From Tricharina praecox (taxonomy: Eukaryota): a stretch of DNA of 64,000 nucleotides. The position numbers and the translations under genes are program-made. Shown in pieces: positions 16,057-32,535 of this stretch. The stretch spans positions 682,001-746,000 of the forward strand of contig NW_026250422.1 in NCBI RefSeq assembly GCF_024521635.1, given 5' to 3'. A model generated the notes under the pieces. That model was not told where the DNA came from, searched no databases, and saw nothing but the letters and a program-made list of their open reading frames with translations. Position 1 is the stretch's first letter. Each line of letters begins with the position of its first letter.

Positions 16057-16288
16057 CGTGTGTATGTGTGAGTGGTGGTGGTGGTGGAATATGTGTGGAG
16101 TTCTCTCAAACAAGGCGGGGTGAGTTCCTAGCAACCTTTTTTTTTCCTCGCATAGAACGGGGAGCCAAGCCACCAACCAACTGACAAGCAAGCAAGCCAA
16201 TCGCAGCCTGCCGGCCGGTCGGGTCCAAACGCAACACAACACATCACGCCGCCCCACGTCGCCCCGCCCCGTCCCACCACACGCACGC

Positions 16289-17116
16289 ATGACAACAAAG
16301 ATGTCAACACTCCCGCCGCTCCCACCGAGCATCCCCGCATTCCTATCCGCCTACCTCCCGCCGTCCTCCTCCTCCGCCACCCCCACCCCCTCCCCTTCCC
16401 CCGTCCCCCTCCCCACCCGTCCCTTCGTAACACTAACCTACGCGACCTCCCTGGACTCGCACCTCTCCCTGTCAGCGGGCGTGCAAACGCTCCTTTCGGG
16501 CTCGGCCACAAAAGCTTTAACGCACTACCTGCGCACGCAGCACTCTGCGATCCTGATCGGCGCGTCGACCGCGATCGCCGATGACCCCGGGCTGAACTCG
16601 CGGCTGCCCGGGACTCCGCTTGCGCGCCAGCCGCGGCCCGTAGTGCTCGATCCACAGTTCCGCTGGCGGATCGCACGAGACGCGAGGGTGCTGCGGACTG
16701 CTGGGAGGGGAGAGGGGAAGGCGCCGTTTGTTTTCGTTTCTGCCGCGGCCGGGGGTGAGGTGGAGGCGGACGAGCGGGTGAGGCTTCTGGAGGAGGCGGG
16801 TGGAAGAGTCGTGCGCATAGATGCGCCGCCGCCGTGGAGTTGGAAAACGGTGCTGGAGACGATTGCGGCGCTGGGGCTCGACAGTGTCATGGTTGAGGGC
16901 GGGGGGAAGGTGATTAATGGGCTCCTCCGGAGGGAGAACCGCGGGTTTGTGGACTCGGTTGTGGTCACTGTTGCCCCTGTCTATTTGGGCACGGGCGGTG
17001 TGAACGTTTGTCCGCCGAGAGTGGTTGAGACCCAGGCGGCCGTCAGGTTCACTGATGTGCTGTGGACCGTGTTGGGGAACGATGTGGTTATGGCCGCCAG
17101 GCCGGACTTGAGCTGA
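16289..17116 (+). CDS. RIB7: 2,5-diamino-6-ribosylamino-4(3H)-pyrimidinone 5'-phosphate reductase (RibD C-terminal family), intronless
   Basis: RPFVTLTYATSLDS, THYLRTQHSAILIGASTAIADDPGLNSR, QPRPVVLD, SVMVEGGGKVI, DSVVVTVAPVYLG. The start may be 16289 or 16301. Confidence 0.93.
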   Translation: MTTKMSTLPPLPPSIPAFLSAYLPPSSSSATPTPSPSPVPLPTRPFVTLTYATSLDSHLSLSAGVQTLLSGSATKALTHYLRTQHSAILIGASTAIADDPGLNSRLPGTPLARQPRPVVLDPQFRWRIARDARVLRTAGRGEGKAPFVFVSAAAGGEVEADERVRLLEEAGGRVVRIDAPPPWSWKTVLETIAALGLDSVMVEGGGKVINGLLRRENRGFVDSVVVTVAPVYLGTGGVNVCPPRVVETQAAVRFTDVLWTVLGNDVVMAARPDLS

Positions 17117-22653: not shown

Positions 22654-23270
22654 AACTCACCTCTCTTCTGCCCCTCTCCCAACGCTTCCCCTCTTTTTGC
22701 TCAACCACTCGACCCTTCCTCCTTCATTCACTCATCTCTCTCTCGTAATCTCTTCGCCTTCGCTCCCTGCCTCCTTCCTTCTCCACATAGACTCACGGCG
22801 CTATCGTCTCCAAAGGTATGTAAGCCTCTAGAACTAGCGTGTGTTTTCTGCCAAGCCCCTACGGGCTCGCTTGGTCTGTGCTGCTCACTCCCCCGACATC
22901 AACTGCAAGCAACCTTCACTTGACGTTTAAGCTTTCTCCACGCTTTTACAACTACTCCAATCCCACAAACAACACCTCTCTTCCACCTTCCACCTTCTCA
23001 CATCTCTAATCTTCTCATATTTCCCCAGTTGCTCACGATTTGTTCCGCACAGCCTACGACGAGTACAAAGTACTACAACATCCTTACGCCAAGTTGCTTT
23101 CCCAAAAGCACTTGGTGTAACCTTGCGCTTCTCCTCACAATTTCGCTGCTTTGGAGTGAGCACATATCCATTCGGTTGCGCTCCATTGCTGTATGTCGGT
23201 CGCTCATCTGTCTACATCAGAAGCTAGTCACAAACCTCTAAGCTTGCACAGTTACAACATTGTTGCGATT

Positions 23271-26200
23271 ATGTCGTCTGGAGCCCCTAGTGCGTTTACA
23301 AGGCGTCCGACCGTTGGAGACTCGTTGCATCCTAAGAAGGTGCTCGACATGCACGATAGAGATTCGATGTGGAGCAACGGTGCTGTGGTGTGCGACAAGT
23401 GGCTGAAACACGGTGAGTCAACATCCCTGATGCGATCACCATACTTCTACTAAACCAAACTCGCTCAATAGGCAAATGCTCTCGCGCGAGGTGTCGTTAT
23501 GAACATAGGCCCCTCCACCCCAACGAGAAGCCACCTTTGTGCGCTGATCACTTCAAGAGGAGAGGTGCGTTTGGCCCCGATGAATTCCTACCCATCGGGT
23601 CTCCGCTATTCTGTTCTCCGCTTATCTGTTTGACCCTGCAGATCCCTGTGGCCGCGGAGATCAGTGTCCTTTGATGCACAATATGACGGGTGTTGGGAAT
23701 TCCGATGGTAGAATTTCACCTGTTTCTTTCGAGAACGATGCTGCTGCTGCCGGTAGGAGTGTCCAACCAAGGAGGAGTGAGAATGAGAATATCCGTGCTC
23801 CGGCACCCATATCGCAGAATGGAGATACGGAAACCATCATTTCGAAAAAGGACAGACCCGACCTTCCGCTTTATCAGCCTCCGCCTAGGCGCGATTCGCA
23901 TATGGAGACGACTGATGGCCCACGAAGCCCCGGTTGGGAATATGTCGGACGTACCACGCTCAGTGCTTCGTTTGAAGCAAGGCCAACTGCTTGGCACCCG
24001 AGTGGCAGGGCCCAGCGCGATTGGGGTAGAGGCTCCACGACTGCTAGCCAGGCCTCGATCTTTGGAGGACTTCCGTATGCAGTCCAGGCTGGACTCAATC
24101 AAGAAGTCTTTACACAGCCCCGTGGTTTTGTTGCGGGACCGCATCGAACTGGCTTCGCACCAGACTTCATTCCAAAGTGCATATCCGGCGCGCTGATCCC
24201 AGACAGAACAACACCCGGGCAGCTTGACAACCGCTCTTCACATCACGTTGGGGCATCGTATGAACCCTGTTCACCGCCGGGGTTGTCCGGAGGTGTTCCG
24301 CTATACCCAACTTCGAATCCCAAGACCGACAGTGGCAAAGACGCTGGAAAAAGCTTAATGCTGATTACCAAGCTCGCGAACGAAGTTAACGACGAGAACC
24401 TGTCATGCAAAGACACTGAGCATGAAGATGCATTCTACCACCAAATTCACCTGGTAGAATTAATCGTGGGTGCTCCGTTCCCTTTTCCCATGCTTCGTGA
24501 CTAACAGTATCGTGACTAACAGTGTGGACAGCACACCCGCACTTCTGGCTTGAAACCCCTCCCACGTGCCTTGCATGAACGGGCCCCTTTTCTAGACGTT
24601 CAACCGAAGTTGCTCGAACAGCAGACCATCATGCCAGAAGTCACCATTGAACATGAGCCCACTAGTGGCGCCAACGATCCTTCGAAGGCTATCGGTCTAC
24701 AGATCACGCCGTCGAAGACTCAACCCAAATTGGACAAACAACCAGATGTCGTTCCAACGGTTGTTGTTGCGCATGTTGTCACGAATGGGGTCTCTAGGGC
24801 TATCGGGGAAGTTTTGCCGCACAAAGCAGACGAACAGCCAGCAGACGAACAGCCGGCAGCCGTTCCAGAAGTCGCTATGGCGGACAAAGTTTCCGGAGGT
24901 ACCAGTGGAGGAACTTCGTCGTCCGAATCGAACAAACAGCCGCCCATTACCCCACAGGTCGCTGTTACCAATGATCTCCCGATAGATATCACCCTACAGA
25001 CCACCCAGCTTTCGGATGACGTGCCACGGGCTATCGGCATACCCGAGTGGGAGATTCAACGGTGCTTCAACTGCTTCCACGAAGGACACAATTATCACGA
25101 TTGCCGCATGCCCAGGTTGGACGTTCTCACGAGAGAAAAAATTCGCGACGAGCAAGGCGTGATTAACCGTAGATGGACGCAGGATTTGTTGACGTTGCAT
25201 CGTCACAATATTCCTTCAGCAGTTATTACAAAACATCGCGGCTATTCAAGGCTCTGGGAGCCGTACACCTCGGCTACAACTGGACGATATATCACGCCTA
25301 GTGCAGCTTTCTTTTCCCAGCGAGCGACGAACATCAACAACCAGGCGGAGAAAAAATCAACCTGCAACAAAGGTGTCCAGACTGACTACGCCGTCTACGA
25401 CCAGGGCGTTCGGGTTCGTCGACGCTCATCGAGAAACAAGAAACACCGTAAGAAGGCGGAAGAGAATAAGGCGGAGGAGAACACGGTGGAGGAGAACAAG
25501 GTGGAATCCTCACCTATTACACCGGAAAAGGAGACGGAAACATGTTGGCTGTGCAAAGGGCGTCACCTCGGGTCTGCATGCAAGGCAACGTCGCCTGACA
25601 GCGATCCCGCTGACTGGGAGGACACTAAGTGGATGCCTAACACCAATGACTTGCCCCAGCTCCCGAAAAAGCACGCTTTGGGGCGCCAAATCAGCCCGAA
25701 GCCAATCAAGTCATTGAAATCGAAGAAAGGCTCGAAGCCCTCCTTGGTCAAGTCGGCGCTTGTCGACTCCAAAACCACAACCTACAAGGTCGAGAGGTCC
25801 GCGAAAGACGGTTTTCGGGAGTCTGGTGATAATGACGCTCCCTACGAGGAGACAGTATTGGACCGTGATGATCTTACAGGGCTGGTGAAGTTGGACAAGG
25901 AGCGCAAGTCGAAAAGGAGGAGCTCTAATAGTGGCCAGTCCAGCTCCGTTGGCAGCGCAACCTTTCAATCTTCTTATTTGTGCCGGTGCCCCAACGAGCT
26001 CTTAGAGTCCATCTTCGCATACGCCGCCGATGGCGACGCATATACCGAGGACAAGAAGATCAAGGACATCGTTACCGGAAACAAATGGGACATTGAAGAG
26101 GGCGTCCAAGACACCTGGAGAAGGGCAAGAAACCTTGCGGGAGTTGTGAAATCCTGCCGACAGCTGCGACTTGTTGCTCAACGTGTCATCTACAGGGTCA

Positions 26201-27339
26201 TCTGCATCAAGAGCTACATTCCTCTGCGTGGCCTTGCTCGCACACTGACTGCGGATCCGGAGCTGGGACAGATGGTGCAAGTGCTCAAAATCCATCTGGA
26301 ACAGACGACAATCAGTTACAAGAATCGCGGCGTGTACAGACACGAAATGGTCAACAACGTTCATGTCACGACTACGGATTACGCCAGTTTCTTTGTGAGA
26401 ATCGTCGAGAGCTGCCGTAACCTTCAAATCCTCTCGACCAAGTTGTATGGGAGCGCTTTGGGATTCGGAGCCTTATTGGGAAGATTCCGTCACATGAGGG
26501 AAATCGTCATCTCCGATGAGACGAGTTGTGGGCAGGTTCTCAATAAGATGTGGAATCACCTGATCAATTTCCCGAAGCTGAACAAGTTCAAGATCGTTCA
26601 TTCGCCCATGAACGACTCAGTGGACTTTACCCCGCTCGAGATCCCATTTCACATGGCGGAGAGAGGCCTCGATTACGGTTTCCGGGCACTGAGTAACCTC
26701 CAACTCGAAAATGCCCCTGAAGTCTCGGATGCGTTACTCGTTTTCCTGGTGCGCCGATTCTACGTTCTCAGTAAGCTCGCTATCGTGAACTGCAAGCTCG
26801 TGACATCCGCTGGTATGTGCCCTGCCCCCAGGCTGTTGAATGAAGTTGTAAATGCTAATTTACGCAGGCATCGCGCGTGTCCTCGGCGAGATCCCGAACA
26901 AACTCTGCCACCTGATCTTCTGGGTCTGGCTCGACCGCACTGGCCGTGCCAGCTCGCGCGAAGCTCTCCCTTCAAAATATCACCTGTGCGATGCCCTGCG
27001 CGAGCATGGGACGTCTCTAATGACCATGAACTTGAAACCGCATAAAGTGTGTGAGGATCTATGGAAGGAGTCGCACTTCAATCACCTCCAGAGGATTGTG
27101 ATCGATATGGCGCAGTTCTCTCATTGCTACAAGCAGACGATCGCCAGAGGTGAAACCGACAAACACGAAGGTTTTTTCGAGGATGCCTACAAGCTGGCCT
27201 GCTCTGAAGACCGACTGCCGTGCATGGACGAGAGCCGTTTGTCCATCAGACTTCGTGAGTTAATCCTCCAACATCCATCCGACGCATGTATACTAATCAT
27301 CATCATCTTACAGACACCAATGGACTTTCCTATCACTAA
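23271..27339 (+). CDS. ~1250-aa protein: 2 CCCH zinc fingers, 2 CCHC-type knuckles, F-box and LRR/RNI-like C-terminus
   Basis: Exons 23271-23412, 23472-23564, 23642-24465, 24532-26812, 26868-27254 and 27314-27339 splice in frame (3753 nt). Motifs: CDKWLKHG|KCSRARCRYEH, CADHFKRR|DPCGRGDQCPLMH, CFNCFHEGHNYHDC, CWLCKGRHLGSAC, YLCRCPNELLESIFAY...LAGVVKSCRQLRLVAQRVIY, and LxxLxI repeats (CRNLQIL, FPKLNKFKI, LSNLQLENAPEVSD, LSKLAIVNCKLVT). Confidence 0.8.
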
Positions 27340-28311
27340 TGGCATTTGCTACAAGTGGTTTACTCACTGACGAGATGCATCTTCCCTTTGTTTTAATGCT
27401 TCGCGGCGCTCTGGAGTCACACAAAACGTCATTTCTGCAATTTCAAAGGGGGATTTCTCATCGTCAGCGACCAGACAAGCGGGAGATATGATTTGATGAG
27501 CTTTTACTACGTTGTCTTTTCCTAATACATTTGTTCGGAGTTCTGTGTCCCCTTTTCGACTTGTTTCAGTTTTTCCTTCTCTTTCATGGGAGGATTTTTC
27601 GCTGGTTAGGCTTTATCTAAAAAAATCGGAGGGGTTTCTTCGTTGTTGCTTTTCTCTCTGGTTTCTTTGCGAATGGTCGGTGTGGTTTGGCACCGGTGTG
27701 GGATGGGAAGTGAAGGGGTTTTTTTTATCCTCCCATGATCTTAATTTCACTGCTCAATTGTCCGTGTCATTCCCGTTGGCTCGACTGTCCCTCGGTGGTT
27801 GGATAGCTCGATTGTTAGACCTGGGGATGCATACGATGGGAAGGGTACGCCTGGTAAGAGTTCTAGTTCTCCACATAAATATCGATTTGTTTTTGTCACG
27901 GAATCTTGCGATCGTTGATGAGCCAGAGGCACCCTCCCGGATAGACTCAATCAGTGTACTTCTTATAGTTTCTACCCCATTAGATAGGTCCCACGGAGAG
28001 AGAATATCAATTGTTCCGCATACAGACTTTCTAGACTATGGCGAACAAAATACCACAGGGTTTTTGTTCTTCGACCCAGGCACGGGCTCTCATGCGTGAT
28101 GATCAATGATGCGACGCCGGGTCATCCAACAAAGAATACTGCCCTTCTTCGTATCCCCGTCCATCCCCTTCACGTCACACAAGACACCTCTCCAACTACG
28201 GTACGCAACCAAACAAGCAAGCAAAGTTACCGCAGAGAACAACACCTTACCAGCACTACCACCAGCACCAGCACCAGCAGCCTTCGATTTCTCACCAGCT
28301 CCACACAAAAC

Positions 28312-29457
28312 ATGCAACGCCACACGCCGGTATCACCACCAATCCACCATCCCGTACCGCAACGACCTGTGCAAGTGCCCGTCATGCAATCCCCCCCTCC
28401 ACCTCCACACTCGTCGGATCCATACGACAACCCCTACGGCGGCGGCGGAGCTCAGCAATACCCCCAGCAGGGGAATGCTTACCCGCAGTTTGGCGGGTTC
28501 GGCGGCGCGGCTGCGCCCGCTTTCTTCGCAGACCCTATGACTGCACAGATGGGCTTCAATGTGGCCCGCGCGGCCATGTCGGGCGGCACGGATTTGGCGG
28601 AGAAGAACGTATGTGCATAGCTCGAGGGATGGATGGGGATAGATGGAGACGGAGGGCGGAAGCTGACGGGAACGTATACGACAGATATCCCGCTACCTCT
28701 CCTCGCTAAAACCGTACTTCGCCGTCACCAACATCTACGTGATCCGCAAGCTGCACATCCTGGTGAACCCATGGCGACACGGGATGTGGTCACGGCAGTC
28801 CACCGCGCGCGCGTCGGCGCAGCGGCCGGGTGAGGCGGAGTCGATCTACCTCCCGCCGCGCGAGGACCTCAACGCGCCGGACATGTACATCCCTTTGATG
28901 TCGTTCGTGACGTACATCCTGCTATCGGCGCTGCTGTACGGGCTGTCGGGGACGTTCCACCCAGAGCTGCTGGGGTACACTGCGAGTACCGCGCTGGGCG
29001 CGGTGATCTTCGAGCTCGTCGGACTGAAGCTCGGGTGCTACCTCCTCAATATCAGTAACTCCCAGATGCTCGATCTCGTCGCATACAGTGGATATAAGTT
29101 CGTCGGCATCATCATCTCGATCCTCGCCACGAGCTTGTTAGGCCGTGGCTGGCTCTCCTGGATCGTCTTTGCCTACTGCTACTCGGCGCAGGCGTTTTTC
29201 TTGGTACCCCCCCTCTTCCCCCACACTCCCCCATGCTTTCCGCCCATGCTAACAAGTGACAGCTCCGGAGCTTGAAATACGTGCTTCTCCCAGACGCGGA
29301 CGGGCACGCCGACGCAACTAACGTGTACTCGACGAACGCGCCGCGGATGCAGCGGAAACGGCGCATGTGGTTCCTGTTCGGCTACTCGTACCTAGTGCAG
29401 TTCCTGTTCATGCTCACGTTGACCTCCGGAGTGGGGAAGGCGAAGGTCAAGGTTTGA
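28312..29457 (+). CDS. YIF1: Yif1/Hrf1 ER-Golgi membrane protein (2 introns)
   Basis: DPMTAQMGF, LKPYFAVTNIYVIRKL..P, YLPPREDLNAPDMYIPLMSFVTYILL, LDLVAYSGYKFVGII and AFFL|LRSLKYVLLP. Confidence 0.95.
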
Positions 29458-29857: not shown

Positions 29858-32227
29858 CTACCGCTGCTGCACCTCAACACTCGGTTGAGCGCCCAGGACC
29901 CACCCAAGCCCACCAACAAGCCCCCTAGTAACCATCCCACTGACCACATCCCTCTTGCGCTCCCTCTCCTGGCCCTCCTTCGGGGGCGCCGTGATCCCGC
30001 CACCCACACCCGAACTAAACACCCTCGCAGCGCCCTTCGCAACCTCAAACAGACTCTGGGGTGTCTCGCCATCACGGGCGATACTCATCCTGCGTTGCGC
30101 GACGCTTCCTCCAAGGCGCGCATGCTCCTCCTCCGCCAGCTCCTCGGCCTGCATCAGCACCTCGATATCGTCCTCATTCCTGCGCCAGGAGGCTAGTACA
30201 TCGCCCAGGGCCTCGGGGGGGCAGTAGGCGAGTGCCCAGGCCAGGAGCTCGCGCTTCTTCTCGAGGTTGGCGAGGGCGGCGGGGCCGCGCGGGGTCGTGC
30301 CCGAGAGGAGAGCGTACGGCGACTGGAAGCGCCCCGCGAGGAGCGCGGTCCGCCATAGTGTGCTGCGCGCGGCTTCGTTGCGCGATGTGGCCGCTGGCAG
30401 CAGCCGCGACGTGATGTATGCGTACGCGCTCTCGAAGTCGTCTTCGTCCAGTGCGGCTTCCGCGCACATTCCGAGGACGCGCGGCGATGCGGCTAGCGTG
30501 TCGGCTTCGCTGCCGCCGGTGCCGTGCACGAGGTCGGAGCCGATCTGGAGGAGCGCGTCTGGGTGCTGGTAGGAGCGCGTGTTCGAGGAGAGGAGCTTGG
30601 ATAGGAGCGAGAGCGGGTCTGGGTGGATGCGGATTTGGACGGGGATGAGGGGCGTGGTGCGGTTGGTACTGGGCATGGTATAGTTGCTCAAGCTGTGGAC
30701 GGCGTTTATTAGGCTGTTCGCCCGGGAGAGCGTGGGGGAGTTGGAGGCGTGTGGGTAGATAGTTTTGATACTGGTGTTTGTTAGCTACCATGGCATATAC
30801 AGTCAGAGGAAGAGAGGGACATACGCTTGAAGAGCATTCTTCATGCCACCTCGAGTCTTATTCCCATTGGTAGCATTATCGACGAAATCGTTGAATGCTG
30901 CCAAAACACACTTCTCTACCTCGTCGAGTGAGATATCTGTGGTGTGGTTGCTGGTAACATAAACATCTCTCACCAGGCCAAACCTCATTCCCGCCAGCAT
31001 GCCCGCGAGGACAACCCTCTCGACCTCCTCCGCCTCGAGCCTCCCCAGCACCTGCGCCTTACTCCGCAACCACCTCGCCCCATCCCGGACTCTCCCCCAC
31101 GCCTCATCGTCGCGCTTACTCCACTCCGTCCCCGGCCTCACGAACTGTCTAAGCACAGCACTCTGCACCTCCCTACTCCCCTCCAACCTCAGCTTCACCG
31201 CCTCGGCCAGCGGCCTTCCCAGCATCGCCGCCGCAGTGATGCCCACATCCAGCAGCCCCAGCGCAGCAAACAGCGGATTCCCGGCATCACCCAGATCGCC
31301 CAGCACCTCAGGCACGTGCGCATCTCCGCCGCCCCCCAGCGCCACCACCCTCCGCTGCACGGCCCTCATCCCCTCCCACACGCCCGCCCCCGTCTCCATA
31401 CAGCGATAACACACGCCGACGGCCCAGGTCACAAACTCCGCTCGCACAGCACGCTCCTCCGGCGGCGGCGTCCACTCCCTCACCACCGCCACAATCCGTG
31501 CAAACGGCAGGGCGCTGAGGCGCGCCCACACGGCATCCCACCCCCCACCCTCGCGCACGCACAGATACGGCACCACGAGCGCTTCCAGGTCGCGCGGGAC
31601 GGTGGAGGGGTCGGCGATCAGGACTTCGAGCGCGTCCTCGACGGGGAGCGTGCGGAACGTGGTGAGCGAGGGGACGGGCTCTCGCGAGAAGGTGTACACC
31701 AGCGTGCTGAGGACGGCGACGTCAGTGGCCAGCGCGGCGATGCTGGGGAGCCCGGGCCGGGCGGTGTAGTGCGCGAGCAGCTCGGCGATCAGTGAGAGGA
31801 GCCCGGTTTCGGCGTCGATCCGTTCGGATCGCTGGATCAGGAAGGCGGTGAGCTTGTCTGAGGCTGAGGAGCCGGCTTGTAGCAGTGGTGCTGGGAGGAG
31901 CTGCGATAGCTTCCGCTCGCAGCGGGAGGAGCTGAGGTTCTCGACCGATGTGGTGTCGATGCTGGGGGTATCGGCGTCCACCGCCGGGGGCTCAAGAGGG
32001 GTTCCGTCGACTACGGCATCGAGGATGGGCGTATACGTGTCCGGTGGAGTTGTCTCGGGAAGACACAGTAGGATGCGGAGGAGCGTCTCATTGTTTGCAC
32101 TTGTAAGGAAAACCTTCGGGTGTGCAGCAATCAGGACCCGTAAGCGTGGTAGATCGGCGGCTGACACTAGGTAAACCGCAAGAAGCGTCGCCTGGGACGG
32201 TGTGAGTGCTTCTATCGGTGGTGGCAT
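29858..32227 (-). CDS. SEC39: Sec39, Dsl1 tethering complex subunit (intron 30771-30824)
   Basis: LLRILLCLPETTPP.TY, IDAETGLLSL, FVDNATNGNKTRGGMKNA, PVQIRIHPDPLSLLSKLL, CAEAALDEDDFESAY, WRTALLAGR and RKRDVVSGMVTRGLVGGLGWVLGA match fungal Sec39. Confidence 0.9.
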
Positions 32228-32535
32228 GTCTCGTTAAGTGATGGTGGTTTATGGGAGCTGGTGAGAGCTATGGCGTCGATAGTTGGAAACGAATGGCCAA
32301 CGTGGAACTTTTGGAGCTCTCTGCGGCTTAAAATGCGCCCAACGTCATCCATTGAAGCATCAATCATCACTCGATATTTAGGCACATAAGTCGAAAGTCT
32401 CAGAAAGGCAACCTTCTAGGTCATCATATTTCAGATCTATGAGTGGAAATGGATACCACAATTCGCCAACGCAACCTAAATCAAAACCCCAAATCAAGGC
32501 GAACTTTTTACCTCCGTCCAGCAAAAAAGAAAAAA

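Follow-up and report, generated by a model that had tools for sequence, protein, structure and literature searches.

Can a single fungal protein carry both zinc fingers of the kind that bind RNA and the F-box by which a ubiquitin ligase selects its substrates? The question is raised by a gene of the cup fungus Tricharina praecox, on the plus strand at 23271..27339 of a 64,000-nucleotide stretch of contig NW_026250422.1 (assembly GCF_024521635.1, positions 682,001 to 746,000). We refer to this whole stretch as the window, and positions are given in its coordinates. F-box proteins choose what the SCF (Skp1-Cul1-Rbx1) ubiquitin ligase destroys, and lineage-specific F-box architectures are common in fungi. 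As far as we know, E3 ligases with direct RNA binding all belong to the RING proteins, for example Makorin, Roquin, and MEX-3. An initial annotation of the window had described the gene as an unusual fusion of tandem CCCH fingers, CCHC zinc knuckles, an F-box, and leucine-rich repeats (LRRs). The architecture held, in one protein of about 1250 residues encoded on a single spliced transcript, but it is no one-off, as a small family has it. The finding stands at the level of annotation: the gene is real, expressed, and conserved, and its function is wholly inferred.

A spliced gene of six coding exons

Stop-to-stop open reading frames (ORFs) on the plus strand are interrupted between 23.2 and 27.4 kb, and a continuous protein emerges only across splice joints. 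We aligned contigs of two sequencing runs from two studies, X1 and X2, to positions 22900-27700; the fractions of sampled words of the region present in these runs were 0.87 and 0.86. One 4589-nucleotide contig of X1 has all six GT..AG joints found on 22950..27700, and the same six joints are shared between two contigs of X2 (2101 and 2432 nucleotides). The library type, given as ‘RNA?’, is a guess with none on record, and we take the contigs as derived from complementary DNA (cDNA) because the six introns are precisely removed. The metatranscriptome runs X3 and X4 gave no contigs matching the stretch.

A single frame stays open through the donors GTGAGT, GTGCGT, GTGGGT, GTATGT, and GTGAGT, each joined to an AG, from the ATG at 23271 to the TAA at 27337-27339. 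It encodes 1250 residues in six coding exons, and the spliced 5' leader of the contig has no upstream ATG. The start, the end, the six coding exons, and the five coding introns had all been proposed in the initial annotation and are all seen in the X1 and X2 contigs, which add an intron in the 5' untranslated region (UTR). That annotation had also feared that the transcript might split in two near 24.5 kb. The contigs contradict this: in both runs, position 24465 is spliced to 24532, with 255 nucleotides on the shorter side of the joint, and the removal of intron 3 connects the two long ORFs in frame. The locus is a real, transcribed gene with six coding exons, giving one mRNA and one protein. 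Its parts are as follows.

22950..23155, plus strand: 5' UTR exon, possibly starting further upstream (spliced X1 and X2 contigs)
23156..23220, plus strand: 5' UTR intron, 65 nucleotides, GT..AG (one contig of X1 and one of X2, both with the joint 23155/23221)
23271..23412, plus strand: coding exon 1, from the start codon into CCCH finger 1, of which it encodes the first half
23413-23471, plus strand: coding intron 1 (contig joint)
23472..23564, plus strand: coding exon 2, from the second half of finger 1 into the first half of finger 2 (contig joints, translation)
23565-23641, plus strand: coding intron 2 (contig joint)
23642..24465, plus strand: coding exon 3, with the end of finger 2 and then a polar-rich, fast-evolving linker
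24466..24531, plus strand: coding intron 3, 66 nucleotides, GTGGGT..CAG (joint 24465/24532 in X1 and X2)
24532..26812, plus strand: coding exon 4, with linker, knuckle-1 domain, knuckle 2, basic tracts, F-box, and most LRRs
26813-26867, plus strand: coding intron 4 (contig joint)
26868..27254, plus strand: coding exon 5 (contig joints)
27255-27313, plus strand: coding intron 5 (contig joint)
27314..27339, plus strand: coding exon 6, including the stop codon TAA (27337-27339)

The 3' UTR extends past 27700, and a Pfam scan of the exon-3 linker gave no match. The X2 transcript breaks between its two contigs in a low-complexity AEENK stretch (25418-25450), and depth is raised in the bin 25315-25475; the break and the raised depth are most likely an assembly effect of this repeat.

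In NCBI, the gene is the Tricharina praecox ‘hypothetical protein’ BZA05DRAFT_122190, a model of 1279 residues (P0001 below). Its start codon, ATG 23193, sits in the 5' UTR intron and gives 26 extra N-terminal residues, and its intron-3 acceptor lies 9 nucleotides upstream (24522-24531) of the acceptor in the contigs, which adds the residues CGQ. The public gene model can be corrected on both points, the start codon and one splice acceptor, and the cDNA-supported protein has 1250 residues.

Zinc modules, F-box, and leucine-rich repeats

The features discussed in this section lie along the protein in the following order.

23391..23679, plus strand: tandem CCCH fingers, residues 41-59 and 71-91 (Pfam zf-CCCH)
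23391-23506, plus strand: CCCH finger 1, C-x8-C-x4-C-x3-H, split by intron 1
23540-23679, plus strand: CCCH finger 2, C-x9-C-x5-C-x3-H, split by intron 2
25039..25290, plus strand: knuckle-1 domain, residues 523-606, about 85 residues (AlphaFold2 model, alignment)
25063-25104, plus strand: knuckle 1, CX2CX4HX4C, CFNCFHEGHNYHDC, residues 531-544 (pattern)
25417..25458, plus strand: basic tract RRRSSRNKKHRKKA, resembling a nuclear localization signal (NLS) (sequence only)
25543..25581, plus strand: knuckle 2, CX2CX3HX4C (CWxCxxxH...C) (pattern, alignment)
25897-25923, plus strand: second basic tract (read from its residues alone)
25978..26208, plus strand: F-box whose helices 1 and 2 are separated by an inserted loop of about 25-30 residues (CPNELLESIF ... 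VKSCRQLRLVAQRVIYRVICI) (alignment, model)
26194..27321, plus strand: LRR solenoid, residues ~908-1245, exons 4-6 (AlphaFold2, Foldseek)

An AlphaFold2 model of the last 418 residues (mean predicted local distance difference test, pLDDT, 87.6; predicted template-modelling score 0.88) consists of helices followed by an LRR solenoid. Helices occupy model residues 9-21, 43-55, and 64-75, ahead of the first LRR strand, and strands and helices then alternate from residue 76 to 413, where most pLDDT values exceed 90. The modelled F-box fold thus sits directly before the repeat domain, with the solenoid C-terminal to it as in the FBXL subclass. At E <= 0.001, Foldseek found 28 matches. The first nine ranks all go to F-box/LRR proteins whose structures were determined together with Skp1 or ASK1: FBXL2 is best at 1.1e-6, followed by D3/MAX2, with SKP2, FBXL17, TIR1, and COI1 later. 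In VIA-align, FBXL2 reached Z 18.5 (root-mean-square deviation 5.4, 305 aligned residues, model 1-413 against chain 9-352) and FBXL17 Z 18.3 and 18.2 (from model residue 2, chain 319-629). These alignments begin at chain residue 9 of FBXL2 and chain residue 319 of FBXL17, in the F-box region of each target. The first LRR-only protein, Rna1p, reached Z 16.4 and aligned only from model residue 44. The LRR/RNI-like repeats of the initial annotation are supported by the modelled solenoid and these matches. Pfam LRR models gave sub-threshold matches only, in relatives. A protein-cluster similarity search peaked at 0.84, below its 0.9 lead level, with some clusters named ‘F-box domain-containing protein’, and serves as a lead only.

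FBXL receptors (human FBXL2, FBXL17, and SKP2; plant D3/MAX2 and TIR1) likewise have an N-terminal helical F-box and then an LRR solenoid, and FBXL2 and FBXL17 are the best structural matches to the window protein. Identity to these receptors is only 8-14%, however, and the window protein differs from them by the 25-30-residue insertion in its F-box, by CP in place of LP, and by about 830 residues with zinc fingers ahead of the F-box.

The F-box itself is best recognized through its relatives. A family profile built from the first 8 homologs and searched against 1.84 billion representatives found a small family of 31 proteins at E <= 0.001. We scanned 22 proteins with Pfam; two of these (P0032 and P0033) match the family via LRRs only, and the other 20 are counted as family relatives. 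F-box or F-box-like matches at E <= 0.1 occur in 9 of the 20. The highest, in P0025, scores 29.7 against a gathering score of 24.3, and P0020, at 24.2, falls 0.1 bit short; the window-family profile finds these two proteins at E 9e-17 and 6e-25, respectively. The relatives' hits occupy the same alignment columns as CPNELLESIF ... VKSCRQLRLVAQRVIYRVICI in the window protein, within a family consensus of LPxEILxxIF, an insertion of about 25-30 residues, and L..V..CRxWRxxxQxxIY. The insertion is common to all members, P0025 included, and few columns of the family alignment are as well conserved as those of the F-box. The window protein itself does not reach the F-box hidden Markov models (HMMs; PF00646, PF12937, and PF13013) and belongs with the F-boxes by homology and conserved motif columns. 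From the alignment and the model, we conclude that the segment is a true F-box, though a divergent one carrying an inserted loop, in agreement with the initial annotation, and docking on Skp1 is predicted.

At the other end of the protein, the CCCH pair takes shape only after two introns are spliced out, exactly as had been proposed, spacings and coordinates included. Scanned exon by exon, the gene gives just two sub-threshold Pfam matches, and zf-CCCH (PF00642) is visible only with the spliced protein P0001, where it reaches 23.9 bits in two stretches (gathering score 20.5, E 3.8e-5). Both spacings fall within C-x(7-10)-C-x(4-6)-C-x3-H, and together with the HMM score they place the pair in zf-CCCH. 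The closest solved sequences are RNA-binding CCCH proteins: 6nzl, a nematode ‘cytoplasmic zinc-finger protein’ (E 7e-4), MBNL1/2 (3e-3 to 2e-2), and CPSF4 (~0.05). The alignments to MBNL fingers involve finger 1, and those to CPSF4 and 6nzl involve the pair. From this similarity we infer zinc and RNA binding by the pair, noting that the E-values are marginal (7e-4 to 0.1; tristetraprolin, TTP, 1) and that those proteins have no F-box. The TTP/TIS11 proteins have two C-x8-C-x5-C-x3-H fingers, an 18-residue linker, and an (R/K)YKTEL lead-in. The window protein falls outside that group, with x8-x4-x3 and x9-x5-x3 spacings, 11 residues between the fingers, no YKTEL, and an E-value of 1 to the tristetraprolin structure 1m9o.

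Between the two ends lies knuckle 1, whose canonical CX2CX4HX4C spacing was correctly noted in the initial annotation. In an AlphaFold2 model of residues 515-830, built from 19 aligned sequences, the knuckle is followed by three helices and a hairpin. This knuckle-1 domain has pLDDT 94-97 over model residues 11-80 (in blocks of ten), with 87 and 70 in the next two blocks (to residue 100); outside it and knuckle 2 (pLDDT 80-86), the model is disordered. The C/C/H/C pattern is retained in 15 of the 16 aligned rows that cover it. Knuckle 1 has the C-x2-C-x4-H-x4-C ligand pattern of zf-CCHC (PF00098) and knuckle 2, with x3, does not; P0001 gave no zf-CCHC match at E <= 5. Knuckle 1 is therefore described as knuckle-like by pattern and model and is not filed as an HMM member of zf-CCHC. 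Its spacing is the same as that of the knuckles of HIV-1 nucleocapsid, Lin28, and TUT4/ZCCHC11, on which the model superposes locally (root-mean-square deviation 0.5-1.6 Å over 20-21 columns, not significant). Compared with these retroviral-type knuckles, however, it has Foldseek E-values above 2 and no Pfam match, and the helical part joined to it has no counterpart among solved structures. With the knuckle-region model, Foldseek found no match at E <= 0.001, and a wide structural search against the PDB peaked at Z 4.1, with none at Z >= 5; the family profile found nothing significant among PDB sequences (nucleocapsid E 0.5, MAX2 E 1). The absence of a solved look-alike is no proof of a new fold, and the modelled domain may be a family-specific one.

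The variant knuckle 2 was found at the coordinates given in the initial annotation, and the basic tracts lie ahead of the F-box, as it had stated. Knuckle 2 is retained in Pezizomycete rows and missing from Orbiliomycete rows, and the basic tracts are putative NLS-like elements. Short linear motifs are conserved across the family between and after the knuckles (25291-25542 of the window, and relatives), namely GVINRxWT, RIWxPYT, a repeated GVQTD, DWExxxW, TTxYKVE, and LDRxDLxLLxxLD. In an ortholog of the type found at locus L004, the stretch from the knuckle-1 domain to knuckle 2 is greatly expanded by K/E-rich repeats (KPEVNK, KAEVGK type), at about 5589-6112 of L004 and residues ~90-330 of P0003, where the window has only the short AEENK-type stretch. 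The precomputed Pfam labels of P0003 (PF07382 and PF02095) probably reflect this low-complexity repeat.

A small family and where its constraint lies

Named members of the family come from the Pezizomycetes (Tricharina, Trichophaea, Rhizina, Morchella, and Ascodesmis) and the Orbiliomycetes (Drechslerella/Orbilia, Arthrobotrys, and Dactylella). All are called ‘hypothetical’ or ‘uncharacterized’ save the Ascodesmis protein P0030, a ‘C3H1-type domain-containing protein’ in UniRef, which has both CCCH fingers and knuckle 1 and whose model stops soon after the LPxEIL motif. The Orbiliomycete proteins P0026 and P0027 have one CCCH finger, zf-CCHC, and F-box-like matches in the same order as the window protein, all of them under the gathering scores (23.5 against 27, 19.5 against 20.5, and 19.3 against 20.8). 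Judged from these sequences, the same domain order of zinc fingers, knuckle, F-box, and LRR recurs in several Pezizomycetes and Orbiliomycetes relatives.

In all five metagenome loci fetched, the CCCH exons lie upstream of the remaining gene, collinear and on the same strand. Three of these loci, L001-3, are 76% identical to the Trichophaea hybrida protein P0007, and in L001 the open frames abut from the finger exon through to the LRR. L001, like L002 and L003, retains both fingers and both finger-splitting introns, and the finger pair is kept in Ascodesmis P0030; L001 and P0030 are more distant relatives of the window gene than the ortholog at L004 and L005. In L001 (7443-11712), as in L002 and L003, CCCH and knuckle-1 exons lie upstream of the part covered by P0007, so the 575-residue NCBI model of T. 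hybrida is probably 5'-truncated. P0020 starts within the apparent tail of finger 2, which indicates that truncated models are common. When longer proteins were searched for homologs of the N-terminal 111 residues, only the protein itself matched, which is weak evidence.

We next compared the window gene with L004 as a single pair by NG86 to obtain ratios of nonsynonymous to synonymous substitution (dN/dS), which are rough at the dS of 0.6-0.9. The exon-3 linker gave 0.60, residues 366-520 0.71, the knuckle-1 domain 0.18, the knuckle-2 region 0.42, and the F-box with the LRR 0.17; the neighboring YIF1 gave 0.04. The knuckle-1 domain and the F-box/LRR region are under purifying selection, the strongest constraint in the protein.

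The genes around the locus are ordinary housekeeping genes.

16124-17113, plus strand: RibD_C-domain protein
28667-29272, plus strand: YIF1
29858-32230, minus strand: Sec39

YIF1 and Sec39 have the same order and orientation in L004 and L005, where YIF1 lies downstream of the ortholog (96% identical) with Sec39 beside it. No paralog of the zinc-finger F-box/LRR gene was found within the window. A transposon origin was considered for the Gag-like knuckle and rejected, given the housekeeping neighbors and no other transposable-element domains.

Possible function and rival explanations

By analogy, and in line with the RNA-directed SCF ligase suggested in the initial annotation, we tentatively favor the reading that the gene encodes an FBXL-type F-box/LRR protein with nucleic-acid-binding-type zinc modules, which would link an SCF ligase to RNA. 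If it behaves as other F-box/LRR proteins do, its F-box would dock on Skp1, making it a substrate receptor of the SCF ligase, and the concave face of the LRR would hold a protein substrate. If the zinc modules behave as members of the CCCH and CCHC families do, they would anchor the ligase on single-stranded RNA or ribonucleoproteins (RNPs), with the constrained knuckle-1 domain as chief tether and the CCCH pair as an accessory. The outcome would be that proteins on particular RNAs are ubiquitinated, or that ligase activity is gated by RNA.

Known proteins offer partial parallels. Makorin, Roquin, MEX-3, and Unkempt each combine RNA-binding zinc fingers or KH domains with a RING ligase module in one polypeptide. 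In these E3 ligases the RING is in the protein's own chain, whereas the link in the window protein would be indirect, through F-box, Skp1, and Cul1. Homology to them is confined to the CCCH fingers, where Unkempt is a weak match (E 1.5).

The nearest analogue is CFB2 of Trypanosoma brucei, the sole F-box mRNA-binding protein found in the literature searched, which its authors call an ‘unconventional’ RNA-binding protein (PMC8051951). When its F-box was deleted or mutated, ectopic CFB2 became more abundant, an effect that its authors connect with SKP1 interaction and auto-regulation (PMC8051951). The accessible portions of that paper mention no CCCH or CCHC fingers and no LRR in CFB2 (PMC8051951), the organism belongs to a different eukaryotic supergroup, and the analogy is functional only. 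Searches of full-text literature found no paper describing a protein with a CCCH or CCHC finger and an F-box. There were no relevant passages on CCCH, CCHC, or zinc knuckles in studies on the Aspergillus nidulans F-box set (PMC9744329) and on F-box and transposable-element domains (PMC12062965), and in a trypanosome cullin preprint the only mention of CCCH concerns an unrelated protein. The initial annotation knew of no characterised fungal RNA-binding F-box protein, and in this literature, as far as the sources extend, CFB2 comes closest.

Several observations on the zinc modules weigh against a link to RNA. They would suit an ordinary FBXL-type SCF receptor with a protein substrate, in which the zinc modules make protein contacts or act as regulatory or degron elements, the CCCH pair alternatively being a decaying remnant; we regard this rival as possible, if somewhat unlikely. 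In the syntenic ortholog at L004 and L005, the second and third zinc ligands are missing from both CCCH fingers (finger 1: C to Y, C to R; finger 2: C to F, C to N). The decayed region spans 3499-3880 of L004, with matching tblastn rows at 7280-7660 of L005. Intron 2 has a GC donor there, and the remaining ORF is open with the rest of the gene kept. With two of four ligands gone from both fingers, the pair is dispensable in at least one lineage, and the family as a whole cannot depend on CCCH-mediated binding. No CCCH is seen in the annotated proteins of Rhizina, Morchella, and Dactylella, whose gene models are possibly truncated; the N-terminal 520 residues evolve fast, at dN/dS 0.60-0.71 against 0.17 for the F-box and LRR; and zf-CCHC stays below its threshold of 20.8 in every member (P0026 19.3, P0029 15.3, P0011 13.8). 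A mere remnant, however, fits poorly with the persistence of the CCCH pair in the more distant L001, intron positions included, and P0030, or with the single finger retained in P0026 and P0027. Knuckle 1, moreover, joins exact retroviral-type spacing to purifying selection, and the closest solved relatives of the CCCH fingers all bind RNA.

Other difficulties for the RNA-linked receptor concern the F-box, for which F-box-like_2 is sub-threshold here (13.1 bits in exon 4 and 12.3 in P0001 against 21.6, E 0.098-0.17). The F-box LP is CP, the family-conserved W of CRxWR is L, and the 25-30-residue loop interrupts the fold, with pLDDT falling to 73 at model residues 21-30. In addition, LRR solenoids match generically, and the lead of FBXL2 and FBXL17 over RanGAP is about 2 Z units. 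The F-box with insertion in the initial annotation stands on the family consensus, on P0025, and on the FBXL2 and FBXL17 matches of the model, but not on Pfam scores of the window protein itself. The low scores, the two substitutions, and the loop would be expected of a degenerate F-box without Skp1 binding, in a protein that serves as an LRR/zinc-finger scaffold outside ubiquitination. We consider this very unlikely: the F-box columns are too well conserved and under purifying selection together with the LRR, the modelled helices are placed as in the F-boxes of FBXL2 and FBXL17, and the loop is present even in P0025, above the F-box-like threshold. The protein could instead be primarily an RNA-binding regulator that uses the F-box for its own control, Skp1 docking leading to auto-ubiquitination and rapid turnover and the LRR serving as a scaffold for RNP partners. 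The pairing of RNA-binding-type fingers with an F-box, and the precedent of CFB2, whose abundance rises on loss of its F-box (PMC8051951), speak for such a role. It appears distinctly unlikely, as the LRR is constrained like the F-box, which fits a substrate-binding surface, and CFB2, compared by function and not by homology, has no LRR solenoid or CCCH noted in the portions of the paper at hand. Scarcely credible, finally, is a gene-model artefact in which a CCCH gene ending at TAA 24502-24504 has been fused to an F-box gene starting at ATG 24631. Retention of intron 3 would indeed give that in-frame stop, with the next ATG at 24631, and many database relatives are fragments starting near this point. 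Against it stand the in-frame joint seen in two runs, the X1 contig that spans the whole, the upstream finger exons in all five related loci with abutting frames in L001, and the annotation of P0030, P0026, and P0027 as fused proteins.

The RNA-linked receptor, our preferred reading, has a bolder form that we hold to be doubtful: a new class of SCF receptor restricted to early-diverging Pezizomycotina (Pezizomycetes and Orbiliomycetes), in which the knuckle-plus-helical domain reads RNA and the CCCH pair helps in some lineages. If true, a cullin-RING ligase would be guided by RNA through an F-box and not a RING, with ubiquitination aimed at proteins on particular transcripts.

The analysis defines a small, unnamed family with an uncharacterised design, RNA-binding-type zinc fingers with an F-box and LRR, and points out a confidently predicted knuckle domain of about 85 residues without a solved relative. 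The decay of the CCCH fingers in one close lineage shows where the constraint on these proteins really sits. A fungal F-box/LRR receptor with classical RNA-binding fingers would offer a simple, natural setting for testing whether a cullin-RING ligase can select its substrates in an RNA-dependent way, and the design of the family may link RNA to protein ubiquitination.

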